A stretch of DNA of 24,000 nucleotides from Dehalococcoidia bacterium (GCA_963422715.1 OY730475.1:649428-673427), one strand, 5' to 3'. Positions 2,222 to 24,000 are shown, numbered from the stretch's first letter. Program-made: numbers and translations. Notes: generated from the letters alone by a model not told the origin.

Positions 2222-2476
2222 ATGTGTAGAAGCATCAAGACTCTGCGGCAACACAACGGCTTAGCCACGGATGACGAAATCCGTGCCGCGGCTCTTCAGT
2301 TCGTGCGCAAAGTGAGCGGCTATCGCCAACCTTCTCAGGCGAACACAGAGGCCTTCTACAACGCGGTAGACGACATCGCTACCGCCACTCGTCATATGCT
2401 GATCACACTCAAGACGCGGCGAATGGCTTATGCCACGCAGAACAAGACTATCCATCCCGAAAAGAACAATGTTTGA
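2222..2476 (+). CDS. DUF2277 family protein
   Basis: From ATG 2222 the product begins MCRSIKTLR...DDEIRAAALQFVRKVSGYRQPSQAN, matching my memory of the DUF2277 N-terminus. GGAG at 2210-2213 lies 8 nt upstream of ATG 2222. The track start at 2201 is a TTG. Confidence 0.7.
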   Translation: MCRSIKTLRQHNGLATDDEIRAAALQFVRKVSGYRQPSQANTEAFYNAVDDIATATRHMLITLKTRRMAYATQNKTIHPEKNNV

Positions 2477-2554
2477 TGCTGAATATCAGTTCGTGCCAAC
2501 GGCTCATCTCTGCATCCATTTACAAGCACCCAAATAGAAAGAAGCTCTGACAAC

Positions 2555-3268
2555 ATGCCCCTCAAACCCGTAGCATCGGAAATCCTGCAAGGACTAAAGG
2601 CTTACGACTCCGCCACGGTTCAGAATGCTGCCATCTTGTTACGAGGATATATACCAGAGCATCTCGACTACTCGGGGCCGGAACTGTTGCCGTATCTGCA
2701 CGATCTCGAAGGCTCCGGCAAGCCGACTGTAGGCTACGCGCTCACATCCACTTGGACGCCGTTAAGTGAGCCCGCGTCGGAGCAAGAGCTGGGCAATCGC
2801 ATGGAATATATGGACTCGATCGCGAAGGCTGACGCGCCGGTGATAGTGGTTCAGCAAGATGTGGATATCCCGCCGCGGCGCGGCGCGATAATCGGCGACG
2901 GTATGGCATTCATGATGCGCGCGCTGGGAGCCGTAGGCGCAGTGGTGGACGGCAATGCACGTGACTTGTCCGGGATCGAGAACGCAGGATTATCGCTCTG
3001 GGCCACGGGACGCGTGCCCGGACATGGTCCGTTCAACATGATCGAGCACGATCTCCCCGTCACCGTCGCTGGGTTGCAGATTCATCCCGGCGACATCTTG
3101 GTGTGCGATGGCGATGGTGTTACACGAGTCCCTATCGACATCGCGGAAGACGTTCTTATGAAGTGCGCCGAGGTACGAGCCAAAGAGGGCGAGTCGCATC
3201 GCTACTTCAGCAATCCTGAATTCACTCTCACCGACTGGGAATCCTATAAGGCGCGAATGACACAGTAA
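2555..3268 (+). CDS. RraA-like / HMG-aldolase-family protein
   Basis: Carries the family signature GDGMAFMMRALGAVGAVVDGNARD and PGDILVCDGDGV. The length of 237 aa is typical. Confidence 0.8.
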   Translation: MPLKPVASEILQGLKAYDSATVQNAAILLRGYIPEHLDYSGPELLPYLHDLEGSGKPTVGYALTSTWTPLSEPASEQELGNRMEYMDSIAKADAPVIVVQQDVDIPPRRGAIIGDGMAFMMRALGAVGAVVDGNARDLSGIENAGLSLWATGRVPGHGPFNMIEHDLPVTVAGLQIHPGDILVCDGDGVTRVPIDIAEDVLMKCAEVRAKEGESHRYFSNPEFTLTDWESYKARMTQ

Positions 3269-20804: not shown

Positions 20805-20843
20805 GGATGGCACATGCTGTAAATCTGGGATTGGGTTTTGCAA

Positions 20844-21326
20844 ATGGAATGGCAAGATATTACAGACGATTTGATTCTAGAGATGCTCCAATCGCCTAAA
20901 CGAGTAACGGATGGGCTATCACTTCCGAAAGACACTAAGCAGAATTTTTCTCAATTCTGCAAACTTGAAGACGCGGATCAACGTTTATTCAGAGTGGTTG
21001 TCAGGCAGAATTTGCTTAAGCGAAGTGATTTTTCATGCATGTTGATTCTTACCTCACCGGTGACGAAAGAGTTGCATCTTGCTAGGTACAACGGAAATAC
21101 TCACCCGCATACCAACAAGCTTGAAAGAGACAGATTCCAGAATCAGTTCCATAAACACCAGACTACTGAAAGGTACATCAAGAGAGGTTTCAGACCCGAT
21201 GGATTCGCATTACCAACAGATGATTACAACGATCTGCACGGTGCACTGAGACAATTATTTAAAGACTGCAATATCAGCTCTGATGCCAACGATTGGGATC
21301 TAAGCCGTCAAATGAGACTGACTTGA
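20844..21326 (+). CDS. hypothetical protein with His-rich motif (no family assigned)
   Basis: Clean ORF in the AT-richer region. Motif block LHLARYNGNTHPHTNKLERDRFQNQFHKHQTTERY at 21072..21176. It is followed 8 nt later by the next gene on the same strand. Confidence 0.55.
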   Translation: MEWQDITDDLILEMLQSPKRVTDGLSLPKDTKQNFSQFCKLEDADQRLFRVVVRQNLLKRSDFSCMLILTSPVTKELHLARYNGNTHPHTNKLERDRFQNQFHKHQTTERYIKRGFRPDGFALPTDDYNDLHGALRQLFKDCNISSDANDWDLSRQMRLT

Positions 21327-21334
21327 GGGAGACA

Positions 21335-22168
21335 ATGCACTTTATGGATACAAAATTGGCTGCACTAAATGAAGCATTGCACAGCCAACTTCGCGACTTA
21401 GTTCACATCACGTCGCATCCGGACGACGGCGAATTATCGGTCAACACGCCATGGACGTTTGACGATGGCGATGGATTCCAAATATACGTGCGCCATATCG
21501 GTGAGAGTATCCGTCTAACTGATTTGGCTCATACCTACATGCAATTGTCATATGAGATAAACATTGATACGCTGGAAAACAGTGAAACTAGACGCGCTTT
21601 GTTACAGCGAGCACTCGACGAACACAATATCGTAGACAAAAACGGCGAACTGTGTACCGAGGTGAGATTAGATTCGATCGGGGAAGGCATCTTTAGGATG
21701 ACGCGCGCGATCGAGGCTGTTTACGCCTTGCGTCATCATTCACTGAATCGGACCAGGAATCAAGCCCGTAGCACATTTATCGATGACTTGGAGCGTGACC
21801 TGCGAAACGAATTCCGCGATGCGGGGTTTGAGACTAACTTCGCCCCTCTGAAATCGAAAAAGGCGTCGTATTACAAGGCTGACTTCAAGTTAGACACGGC
21901 AGATCGTGAAGTGCCTGCATTGATATTCGGTGTGCATAACAGCAACAAAGCGCGGTTGACATCAATCAGCTTGTATGAGTTCATCCTACAAGAACTCAAA
22001 TTCAGAGACATAGTGGTGGTTCCAGATCGCGATCAGATAGGAAGGGCTGATTACGAGCGATTGGATGAAATATCAACCGATGTCATCTCTCGGAGCGAAC
22101 TGAACGTAAATCTCGGCAAGGCGATTAGAGAACGGATCTCTGCTCATACTTTAGCTTTAGGCCGTTGA
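21335..22168 (+). CDS. hypothetical protein, DUF1828/DUF1829-like two-domain architecture (assignment from memory)
   Basis: N-terminal half: WTFDDGDGFQIYVRHIGESIRLTDLAHTYMQL...RRALLQRALDEHNI...GELCTEV...LTRAIEAVYAL fits my recollection of DUF1828. The C-terminal half (YYKADFKLD...PALIFGVHNSNKARLTSISLYEF) fits DUF1829. A purine-rich GAGGGAGA precedes ATG 21335. Confidence 0.55.
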   Translation: MHFMDTKLAALNEALHSQLRDLVHITSHPDDGELSVNTPWTFDDGDGFQIYVRHIGESIRLTDLAHTYMQLSYEINIDTLENSETRRALLQRALDEHNIVDKNGELCTEVRLDSIGEGIFRMTRAIEAVYALRHHSLNRTRNQARSTFIDDLERDLRNEFRDAGFETNFAPLKSKKASYYKADFKLDTADREVPALIFGVHNSNKARLTSISLYEFILQELKFRDIVVVPDRDQIGRADYERLDEISTDVISRSELNVNLGKAIRERISAHTLALGR

Positions 22169-22244
22169 CAGCGCGATTTCATCGCAACTAGTGCCATGCT
22201 ATCTTAAGTGTTATTCTTTCACGTTCTCAATAGAGTCTCGCCAG

Positions 22245-23519
22245 TTAAGTGAGTTCGTAATCCACTTCAATTTCGAATTTAGGCGCTTCAATCTCAGCAT
22301 TGTTTAACCAATCAATTATAAATAGATTGACTGCATCATTGAATTCATCTATAGCACCGATTCGATATCTGGGGAATCCGTCATAATTACCGCACTTCAG
22401 TTCCGGAGCATCGAATACAAGTTGAGACCGATCTGCAGTAGCCGTAATTAGAAATTTTATTAGCTTTACATCATTTCCAAATACGACTAGCTGCACTTCG
22501 AGTCCGTATTCTAGAGTTGGAGTGCCGGCGTATCGCCTGATGCGCTCAATATTGCGTAAACCATTAGCCAACCAATGAACTACTGCATTTAGATACAGCA
22601 CCTTTTCTACAGGCCTACCTTTTGCGAATCCATTCAACACTTCCAATACGCCATCTGACCATAGAGTTTCTCTATCGATAGAAAAAGAATCTCTATCGTA
22701 GATGAATTTTGTTCCGCGTAGAACCGGGATATAAGTTCTATTAATGTTAATCAACAGAGATGGAATCGGGTATACAGGATTCGGATTATTCTTGTACCAA
22801 GCGCGTAGATCAAGATTTTCAGGAGTAATATCACGATTCCCGTGCACATGCCCTAGATCCAGCTCGTCTACCGGAACGAACGTCATCCGGAAACAGAGGC
22901 CGTCATCGCGTTTCGACTTCAAATCACTGATGAACCGATTGAAATCAAGTTTACGCGTTTCGTAGACCCTGTTCATCGCCTCTAATCGGTTAGCAGACCT
23001 AAATGTCATATCCTGTATCTCCCGCATATCCATCGGCACCGATTCGGAACCGCGACGGCGATAACACTGGTTGTCTGCCTTGCTTCTATGTGGCGCACGC
23101 GTAGAACGCGGCACATCAAGCGCTACGACACCTGAACCGTTGCCATCCGTTACTATGCCGGCAGTCTGCATTCTCAGCAACGGCGGCTCAATCGAATCAC
23201 CGCAGATGCGCTCAATACGTCTCGCCAGTTCAGCACAATCCGCAATCGGCACTATTTCCGCGGCGACATCTGGTTCGCCATCATCCTCTTGCACTCCCAA
23301 GAAGATGCGTCCTCCATACCCGTTCGCGAATGCCACGATCTCCTTGAGGATAGCTTTCTTGGCATCTTTCGTTAACTTATTGCTGTCTGATCCTTTGCTT
23401 GATGAAAGTCCACGCTTGAACTCGACGTTCTCGCCTTCACGAATCTTGTGTTCGACCAACATGCAGATGTCATCGGCATTCAGCTCGTTTACAGGTTTTG
23501 TCAGTGCCGGAATAGTCAT
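22245..23519 (-). CDS. AlbA_2 (Schlafen-type) domain protein with uncharacterised C-terminal domain
   Basis: The N-terminal ~165 aa carry the AlbA_2 signature: E..VEFKRGL, AILKEIVAFANGYGGRIFLGVQEDDGE, and CYRRRGSESVPM at the domain end. Residues ~170-424 match nothing I recognise. Confidence 0.72.
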   Translation of the reverse strand: MTIPALTKPVNELNADDICMLVEHKIREGENVEFKRGLSSSKGSDSNKLTKDAKKAILKEIVAFANGYGGRIFLGVQEDDGEPDVAAEIVPIADCAELARRIERICGDSIEPPLLRMQTAGIVTDGNGSGVVALDVPRSTRAPHRSKADNQCYRRRGSESVPMDMREIQDMTFRSANRLEAMNRVYETRKLDFNRFISDLKSKRDDGLCFRMTFVPVDELDLGHVHGNRDITPENLDLRAWYKNNPNPVYPIPSLLININRTYIPVLRGTKFIYDRDSFSIDRETLWSDGVLEVLNGFAKGRPVEKVLYLNAVVHWLANGLRNIERIRRYAGTPTLEYGLEVQLVVFGNDVKLIKFLITATADRSQLVFDAPELKCGNYDGFPRYRIGAIDEFNDAVNLFIIDWLNNAEIEAPKFEIEVDYELT

Positions 23520-23621
23520 AAATGCGGAGAACTTGCTACGAGTATTTGATTGGCGATGAGGCTACACGCTCAATGCGAACGCAAACGGACATGTTCATGA
23601 TTTCTTTGGCGGTTGCATCTT

Positions 23622-23679
23622 GGAGATTTACTCACTTCTCCAGATCCTTAGGACTGTTCAATTTGCCGCCTGGTGGTTT
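23622..23679. repeat. direct repeat copy 1 (58 bp)
   Basis: 54/58 identical to 23932..23989 (offset exactly 310 bp). Mismatches at 23651, 23657, 23671 and 23674. Confidence 0.9.
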
Positions 23680-23868
23680 ACTGCTCTTGATCCATGCCTC
23701 CGGTTTCTGAGGGACTTTAGGCGGAGCAGAAGACTTACGTGTAAGCACACGACCATAAGATCTAAGTATCTTCGTTAGTTCCTCTCCTGATAAAGTATCA
23801 TTCTGTTCATTTTCAGGCAATCTATATCTCCATTCATAGTGTAATTCAACAGAATCATAGCATATCAT
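23632..23868 (-). CDS. small hypothetical protein (78 aa) with Lys/Pro-rich C-terminus
   Basis: The ORF is co-oriented with and upstream of the AlbA_2 gene. Its C-terminal 19 codons are conserved in a second copy 310 bp upstream, with third-position changes that keep the minus frame open, whereas the plus frame gains a stop. Confidence 0.4.
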   Translation of the reverse strand: MICYDSVELHYEWRYRLPENEQNDTLSGEELTKILRSYGRVLTRKSSAPPKVPQKPEAWIKSSKPPGGKLNSPKDLEK

Positions 23869-23931
23869 ATACGGAAGTAACTCCCCATCCTATTGTATCT
23901 TGAGCATTATTCTCTGAAGCGGCAGGATTTG

Positions 23932-23989
23932 GGAGATTTACTCACTTCTCCAGATCCTTATGACTGCTCAATTTGCCGCCCGGCGGTTT
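23932..23989. repeat. direct repeat copy 2 (58 bp)
   Basis: See copy 1. Identity includes 10 nt beyond the minus-strand stop codon. Confidence 0.9.
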
Positions 23990-24000
23990 GTTAAGCCATG
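23942..24000 (-). CDS. 3' end of a paralogous small gene (runs off the window)
   Basis: The minus frame reads ...WLNKPPGGKLSSHKDLEK-stop, parallel to ...WIKSSKPPGGKLNSPKDLEK-stop of the 78-aa ORF. The stop codon is at 23942..23944. Confidence 0.3.
   Translation of the reverse strand, partial: WLNKPPGGKLSSHKDLEK

Follow-up and report, generated by a model that had tools for sequence, protein, structure and literature searches.

What does a bacterial Schlafen-type protein do when the half of the molecule that follows its AlbA_2 domain matches no known family? This question is raised by a gene of a Dehalococcoidia bacterium (GCA_963422715.1, OY730475.1:649428-673427), contained in a 24,000-nt stretch that is referred to here as the window. 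The gene starts with ATG and encodes a protein of 424 aa. The answer that we favour as the probable one is a single-protein defence system of the prokaryotic Schlafen (pSlfn) type, in which a putative latent tRNase would be controlled by a C-terminal domain with a sensing or regulating function. This reading is preferred because both the anatomy of the protein and its genomic context fit the pSlfn defence proteins described by Perez Taboada et al. (Nat Microbiol 2026, PMC13056530). The first-pass annotation of the locus had described the same open reading frame (ORF), and every peptide that it quoted is present in the translation. It had also proposed a non-canonical AlbA_2 fusion that might act as a single-protein sensor/effector, and the catalytic motif, the hidden Markov model (HMM) searches with the C-terminal domain, the defence islet and the comparison with the published pSlfn systems all speak for that proposal as a prediction.

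The ORF is a real and conserved gene of a distinct family, because it has 54 full-length homologues and yields a confident AlphaFold model. The homologues, retrieved from 5.8 billion protein clusters with a word-indexed search, extend down to 26% identity; nearly all of them are 400-440 aa long, match over the whole length and contain PF04326 as their sole Pfam family. The full-length AlphaFold2 model, built with the family alignment, reached a predicted local distance difference test (pLDDT) value of 88.6 and a predicted template modelling score (pTM) of 0.80.

The assignment of the N-terminal region to AlbA_2, made from its signature motifs in the first-pass annotation, was confirmed by Pfam, where SLFN_AlbA_2 (PF04326) matches with an E value of 1.8e-16 and 61.1 bits (cut-off 25.3) over the complete model (positions 1-118 of 118). 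The domain also has the fold that defines the catalytic lobe of SLFN proteins. Conservation was analysed in an alignment of 39 of the 54 relatives, in which E28, E33 and K35 are invariant in all 39 sequences. These residues form the Ex4(E/D)xK motif, which in the definition of Perez Taboada et al. is the catalytic hallmark of Schlafen RNases (PMC13056530), and the family profile places the EGENVEFK stretch on the E-x4-E-F-K of pig SLFN11 (7fex). E78, within GVQED, is equally invariant; the corresponding consensus, 'GieE', aligns with the GVDD acidic pair of 5yd0 (SLFN13-type) and 7fex, where the matching D is ambiguous. We take E78 to be the third acidic residue that follows the FAN..GG..G motif, represented by D248 in SLFN13 and D252 in SLFN11. 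The remaining invariant positions of the alignment are A65, N66, G69, G70, G75, P112, G130, S139, P143, H144 and R155, followed by M165, I168, Q169, R268, G290 and D403. Three of these belong to the MREIQD motif, whose R166 and D170 are kept in 38 of the 39 homologues. The N-terminal domain is of the Schlafen type and its catalytic motif is intact, and nuclease activity is predicted for it from the sequence. Mean pairwise identity is 44% in the nuclease domain versus 25% in the C-terminal domain; the sensor of pSlfn5 is likewise less conserved than its nuclease (PMC13056530).

The association between the two domains is fixed. A phmmer search of 1.84 billion representatives with residues 171-424 retrieved 44 matches in total, and a profile search for the C-terminal domain in the 5.8 billion clusters retrieved 222. 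All 44 phmmer matches and the 120 listed of the 222 profile matches contain either PF04326 or no Pfam family, and those without PF04326 are short forms that begin at or just upstream of M165. In proteins of 405-440 aa the phmmer match always falls at about residues 172-420, while the shorter proteins begin at or just upstream of MREIQD. Thus, among these 44 and 120 listed matches the C-terminal domain is found only behind this Schlafen domain, which is what the architecture survey suggested in the first-pass annotation has brought out, together with the lack of a universal neighbour. The 260 residues located C-terminal to the Schlafen domain also exceed the >40 aa by which pSlfn fusions are defined. 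The database additionally contains proteins of 237-294 aa whose first residue is M165. A split two-gene form or a free-standing C-terminal domain was considered for them and rejected, as only two such cases were encountered in 81 genome loci, both of them broken copies: one (L006:5848-7118, plus strand) carries a frameshift of 2 nt at precisely the boundary between the domains and the other (L077:1869-3512, plus strand) an in-frame TAG within the Schlafen domain. In 60 metagenome loci, about 48 of about 50 copies have the Schlafen motifs in frame upstream. The short entries most likely stem from gene calling on broken genes or from wrongly placed starts, and fusion of the Schlafen and C-terminal domains is the rule in the family.

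The C-terminal half was described in the first-pass annotation as lacking both the HATPase_c_4 region and the helix-turn-helix (HTH) in which most bacterial AlbA_2 proteins continue. Concerning the usual arrangement, the published survey agrees, since histidine kinase-type fusions with or without HTH are the commonest pSlfn class (53%; PMC13056530). Concerning this protein, the claim holds at the level of HMM searches: neither module was detected by Pfam at E ≤ 1 in the protein itself, where the only hit in the C-terminal part was a chance-level ACT_PSP_2 (E 0.2), and 56 C-terminal domains of the family gave no meaningful Pfam match, with HATPase_c_4 or HTH at E ≤ 0.1 in 0 of the 56. HATPase_c_4 was detected in two further AlbA_2 proteins encoded by the genome of the window (2e-16 and 9e-18), which served as positive controls, and the usual module was rejected for the present protein. 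These two canonical AlbA_2 plus HATPase_c_4 proteins are encoded at L084 (G000:C1:460258-463593) and L086 (G000:C1:1801632-1804976), one of the two genes being located directly downstream of a gene for an AAA_21 (AbiEii-like) ATPase. NCBIfam and PADLOC gave no match for the 424-aa protein, and neither single-sequence nor profile searches of the PDB connected the C-terminal domain with a solved structure. In the ESM Atlas, the nearest clusters are uninformative, consisting of unnamed hypothetical proteins of 190-230 aa.

Structure prediction provided a defined picture of this half. In both the full-length model and the model of the C-terminal domain, a single helix that starts at MREIQD and spans residues 165-203 is followed by a beta-rich, two-layer domain (204-424). 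Folded alone, from an alignment of 56 homologues taken from the genome loci, the C-terminal domain reached a pLDDT of 89.9 and a pTM of 0.90. A Foldseek comparison of this confident model with the PDB, a check that the first-pass annotation had recommended, returned nothing at E ≤ 0.001; the best match (E 0.015, template modelling (TM) score 0.17) lies within the background of the tool. The predicted fold possibly resembles that of S-adenosylmethionine decarboxylase (AdoMetDC) and of the N-domain of spermine synthase, a likeness that is left short of an assignment because the Foldseek values fall within the stated background. The coordinates of the gene, its parts and its surroundings are collected in Table 1.

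Table 1. Location of the Schlafen gene, its domains and motifs, and neighbouring features. Positions are those of the window unless a locus or contig is named.
Feature	Position	Strand	Evidence
Whole gene: SLFN_AlbA_2 nuclease domain (predicted activity), linker helix and C-terminal domain	22245..23519	-	ORF list, homologues, AlphaFold
SLFN_AlbA_2 domain, residues 28-164	23028..23438	-	Pfam
Catalytic motif E28-x4-E33-x-K35 (EGENVEFK)	23415..23438	-	Invariance, SLFN11 alignment
E78, third acidic active-site residue (GVQED)	23286..23288	-	Invariance in 39/39
MREIQD motif (165-170) and long linker helix (165-203)	22911..23027	-	Conservation, two models
Beta-rich C-terminal domain, residues 204-424, presumed sensor/regulator	22248..22910	-	Model; without family match
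Low-GC islet	20805..24000, extending about 800 nt past the window end	.	Composition
Convergent pair (162 aa and 291-aa DUF1828 protein), PDC-M24-like candidate defence	20838..22168	+	Pfam, PADLOC
1023-aa type IIG restriction-methyltransferase	L082:3252-6323 = G000:C1:674251-677322	-	PADLOC, E 4.7e-66
NYN protein, PADLOC candidate HEC-09	L082:6591-7235 = G000:C1:677590-678234	-	E 6.7e-41

The gene resides in an islet whose GC content (0.43-0.48) is low compared with that of the flanks (about 0.55) and which begins after uvrA and a thioesterase gene. Besides the Schlafen gene, the islet contains the PDC-M24-like pair, a membrane-type ORF of 219 aa and two small ORFs that are paralogous to each other. 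The Schlafen gene converges on the two-gene operon, as the first-pass annotation had noted, with 76 nt between the stop codons. The second gene of the pair encodes the DUF1828 domain (E 6.3e-17) and is a PADLOC candidate for PDC-M24B (E 1.4e-12). Beyond the end of the window, the type IIG and HEC-09 genes abut the islet within about 5 kb of the Schlafen gene. A known defence gene is thus present within +/-10 kb, the distance applied to pSlfn genes, and the context is that of a defence island. NYN genes of the HEC-09 type also immediately precede the Schlafen homologue in L037 and in L042, and the homologue in L006 has one nearby. Just upstream of the Schlafen gene and on the same strand lie the two small paralogous ORFs, which encode 78 aa with a Pro/Lys-rich C-terminus (23632-23868, minus strand, and L082:~2330-2560, minus strand); a repeat occurs at L082 2050-2100 and 2360-2410. 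They are followed by the 219-aa ORF (L082:2567-3226), which has a hydrophobic N-terminus and no family match.

The distribution of the family is rare, patchy and accessory, and reveals a gene that moves horizontally. Relatives were found in 211 of about 186,000 species genomes. The closest ones (41-58% identity) belong to Dehalococcoidia metagenome-assembled genomes, and the remainder, at about 30% identity, are spread over Latescibacterota, Alpha- and Gammaproteobacteria, Acidobacteriota, Chloroflexota, Binatota, Nitrospirota, Gemmatimonadota, Poribacteria and others, with the phyla intermixed in the family tree. Within the genus of the window, the gene is present in 6 of 35 species, one of the copies being broken, and in other genera of the order it was found in 0 of 25. 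A phage origin of the gene was considered and discarded: a single match was found in 2.9 million viral contigs, and the fold matches in BFVD were of low quality only (TM about 0.2).

How such a protein would act can be proposed from analogy with its characterised relatives. The N-terminal Schlafen domain would be a latent RNase, most likely a nuclease of the tRNA anticodon arm or acceptor stem as in SLFN11/13 and RorSlfn5, which the long helix and the C-terminal domain of about 220 aa would keep inactive, probably within an oligomer. The C-terminal domain would recognise an infection cue, for example a phage protein or a nucleic acid, upon which tRNA cleavage would stop translation and limit the phage yield. 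A precedent comes from the pSlfn study, where pSlfn fusions protected E. coli from phages and cut tRNA upon sensing a phage protein, both protection and trigger-dependent tRNA cleavage being demonstrated for RorSlfn5 (PMC13056530). In the same survey, defence genes are close to 69.6% of the pSlfn genes, and 17.2% of the pSlfn genes are fused to domains without Pfam or ECOD assignment (PMC13056530). Further variants have been shown in related work: type III CRISPR systems include cA4 (cyclic tetra-adenylate)-activated Schlafen tRNases, and Schlafen-Argonaute fusions occur as well. Several points weigh against a single-protein defence system. Only 2 of the 7 pSlfn systems tested were protective and 30% of pSlfn genes are located away from defence genes (PMC13056530). 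Within the Dehalococcoidia clade there is no fixed defence partner, and the neighbours are metabolic genes (Aminotran_4, MR_MLE) and the gene of a 970-aa protein. Upstream of the Schlafen gene neither a promoter nor a Shine-Dalgarno sequence is evident. For a host defence gene the single viral match speaks neither way, and it offers no clue to the trigger; the C-terminal domain could serve in substrate binding or oligomerisation instead of sensing.

The neighbourhoods of the homologues provide the basis for an alternative in which the nuclease is linked to restriction. No universal partner gene exists, the 137 immediate flanking genes being distributed over 101 Pfam families. The flanks are nevertheless rich in defence functions (ResIII/helicase, N6_Mtase, type ISP, HsdM, HTH_3, AAA_15/21, NYN, NACHT/STAND, SIR2, HmaC) and in mobility genes (IS1595 and IS110 transposases, integrases). 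A restriction-modification (RM) gene of the N6-methyltransferase (N6-MTase) type occurs within 8 kb in 22 of 80 homologous loci, often directly adjacent, and 12 of the 80 carry an MmeI-type (type IIL) enzyme, which in eight is convergent with the Schlafen gene at 31-341 nt. A further Schlafen-MmeI pair (L112) came to light among metagenome loci sampled independently. In two loci of Latescibacterota, L016 and L044, the Schlafen gene is preceded on its own strand, at a distance of 36-41 nt, by the gene of a type ISP enzyme; the corresponding position in L073 is occupied by no more than an ISP-like fragment of 113 aa. The Schlafen proteins linked to MmeI-like enzymes are only 38-66% identical to one another, and the pairing is therefore old. 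Ten of the twelve MmeI-like enzymes, from five or six phyla, are 68-84% identical, against only 40-66% for the Schlafen proteins next to these ten. Such similarity among the enzymes points to a widely transferred cassette, and the adjacent Schlafen genes diverge much faster. Pairwise identities of both proteins are correlated (Mantel r 0.68, a value reached by 7 of 2000 permutations), a result that leans on the outlier L039. The MmeI-like genes downstream of homologues are those of L013, L021, L027, L047, L049, L063, L064, L065, L072 and L074, and the enzymes with 68-84% identity come from Acidobacteriota, Chloroflexota, Binatota, Nitrospirota and Alphaproteobacteria.

From this association it can be proposed that the Schlafen protein is a guard nuclease like PrrC, which would be kept latent by, or monitor, a single-chain N6-adenine RM enzyme (IIG, IIL or ISP) and cut tRNA once a phage anti-restriction factor disables that enzyme, the C-terminal domain being the docking or monitoring module. 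Schlafen RNases have also been proposed as back-up effectors of BREX (PMC12839542), and in the genome of the window the type IIG enzyme lies upstream on the same strand. However, this enzyme is separated from the Schlafen gene by 1.3 kb and three ORFs, has a normal GC content and stands outside the low-GC islet, and no RM pairing was found in the window's own clade. The restriction-linked members all belong to one well-supported clade of 37, whereas the window's protein falls in a separate Dehalococcoidia clade (support 99). With the queries used, no RM gene was detected in 58 of the 80 genome loci or in 28 of the 30 metagenome loci measuring 6 kb or more. Genes in convergent orientation do not share a transcript, and the RM association is partly generic because no genes are more frequent in defence islands than those of RM systems. 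The literature search returned no paper joining Schlafen proteins with MmeI, type IIG or type ISP enzymes. The guard idea is attractive for the sister clade and weak for the gene of the window, for which we regard it as unlikely; that the C-terminal domain is a new Schlafen-dedicated sensor fold docking on or monitoring MmeI-type IIL, ISP and IIG enzymes is very unlikely. If it were true, type IIL/ISP restriction would have its first guard, and back-up immunity by a restriction-linked anticodon nuclease would have been invented twice independently. An insertion between hsdS and hsdR in the manner of PrrC was also considered and was not seen; the large genes downstream in the loci concerned encode SIR2 or NACHT/STAND proteins, not HsdR.

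Two further neighbourhoods were recorded. In the dense defence island of a Latescibacterota genome, the gene of a 475-aa pentapeptide-repeat protein (L045:6496-7920, plus strand) is flanked by those of a type ISP enzyme and the Schlafen homologue, after which a NACHT/STAND protein of 1522 aa is encoded. Relatives from the genus of the window have, 20-30 nt upstream on the same strand, a gene for a retropepsin-like aspartyl protease of 120-138 aa with a DTGA motif (gag-asp_proteas, E 2.9e-8), located on the plus strand at L002:7564-7980, L003:7573-7980, L004:7602-7973 and L005:7618-7980. A conserved protein of 970-982 aa, without Pfam or PDB sequence match, is also encoded upstream (L003:4606-7518, L004:4607-7519 and L005:4629-7577, plus strand). 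These genes may form a lineage-specific operon, and neither is present in the window.

A role outside defence has also to be weighed, in which the protein would bind nucleic acids or process RNA, with AlbA_2 as a DNA or RNA binder in a regulatory or housekeeping function. AlbA_2 proteins have traditionally been annotated as DNA-binding proteins or transcription regulators, one member of the family is called 'ATP-binding protein' by NCBI, and the 30% of pSlfn genes remote from defence genes (PMC13056530) and the metabolic surroundings of the Dehalococcoidia relatives would agree with such a role. Yet Pfam found no HTH or other DNA-binding module in the protein or in the 56 C-terminal domains, and the catalytic residues, which mere binding does not require, are invariant. 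The patchy accessory distribution, the position in a low-GC islet, the pseudogenised copies in L006 and L077 and neighbours that across phyla are mostly defence and mobile genes likewise disagree with it, making this explanation improbable. Improbable, too, is a Schlafen nuclease whose C-terminal domain is a substrate clamp or oligomerisation module, like the non-catalytic lobe of eukaryotic SLFN N-domains, and whose signal comes from a neighbouring gene product or from a small ORF upstream whose product would inhibit in the manner of an antitoxin, even if eukaryotic SLFN nucleases clamp tRNA with two lobes where pSlfn proteins have one, the conserved R211, R268 and R328 of the C-terminal domain would suit the binding of RNA phosphates, the high pTM of the full model indicates a fixed packing between the domains, and the two small paralogous ORFs stand directly upstream on the same strand.

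A single-protein defence system thus remains the preferred reading, and its place among known systems can be considered. Compared with eukaryotic SLFN11/12/13/14 and the tRNase domain of SAMD9/9L, the identity is 11-24%, there is one lobe, not two, and the SWADL linker and the helicase are absent. With PrrC and RloC the likeness is that of a latent tRNA nuclease encoded beside an RM enzyme, a working analogy that applies only to the sister clade. PrrC is an unrelated protein that has its own nuclease domain and an ATP-binding cassette (ABC)-type NTPase, neither of which has a Pfam or NCBIfam match here, where SLFN_AlbA_2 is the only domain found; moreover, the partner in the Schlafen family is a single-chain type IIL, ISP or IIG enzyme, usually convergent and absent from most loci. 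The canonical AlbA_2-HATPase_c_4(-HTH) proteins ('RecG-like', 'transcriptional regulator' or pSlfn-HisKinase), to which the BREX-linked back-up effectors of PMC12839542 also belong, share a homologous AlbA_2 domain, the identity being 27% with a paralogue that the window's genome encodes, and a similar overall length (396-414 aa); in place of their HATPase_c_4 module, the present protein has the helix and the beta-rich domain.

The closest comparison is with pSlfn1-55 and the unannotated fusions of Perez Taboada et al. (PMC13056530), with which the family shares the single polypeptide, the fusion to an Ex4(E/D)xK nuclease, the location in defence islands and a nuclease more conserved than the fused domain. 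It differs from them in that the fused domain, which has no Pfam hit, is not Ig-like (RorSlfn5), DUF262 (EcoSlfn7), HisKinase, HTH or DUF5929, that the Schlafen domain is N-terminal and that the hosts are mainly uncultured Dehalococcoidia, Latescibacterota, Proteobacteria and Acidobacteriota. Within that classification, the family could belong to the 'TBP-like' (1.5%) or the 'unannotated' class (17.2%, 558 clusters). Schlafen tRNases are among the few immune effectors common to humans and bacteria, and this family bears on how their many fused domains sense infection. It offers a compact (424 aa) and confidently modelled case, with a C-terminal domain that lacks a clear structural relative and changes more rapidly than the nuclease, and it extends, by one candidate gene, the poorly known immune repertoires of Dehalococcoidia and other lineages that are for the most part uncultured. 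Together with the sister clade, which is linked to MmeI-type enzymes in at least five phyla, the family allows a concrete test for a new phage-sensing fold or, alternatively, for a Schlafen that guards restriction. The general principle of a Schlafen nuclease joined to a sensor has already been published, and what this family would add to the known systems is the unassigned domain that presumably does the sensing.
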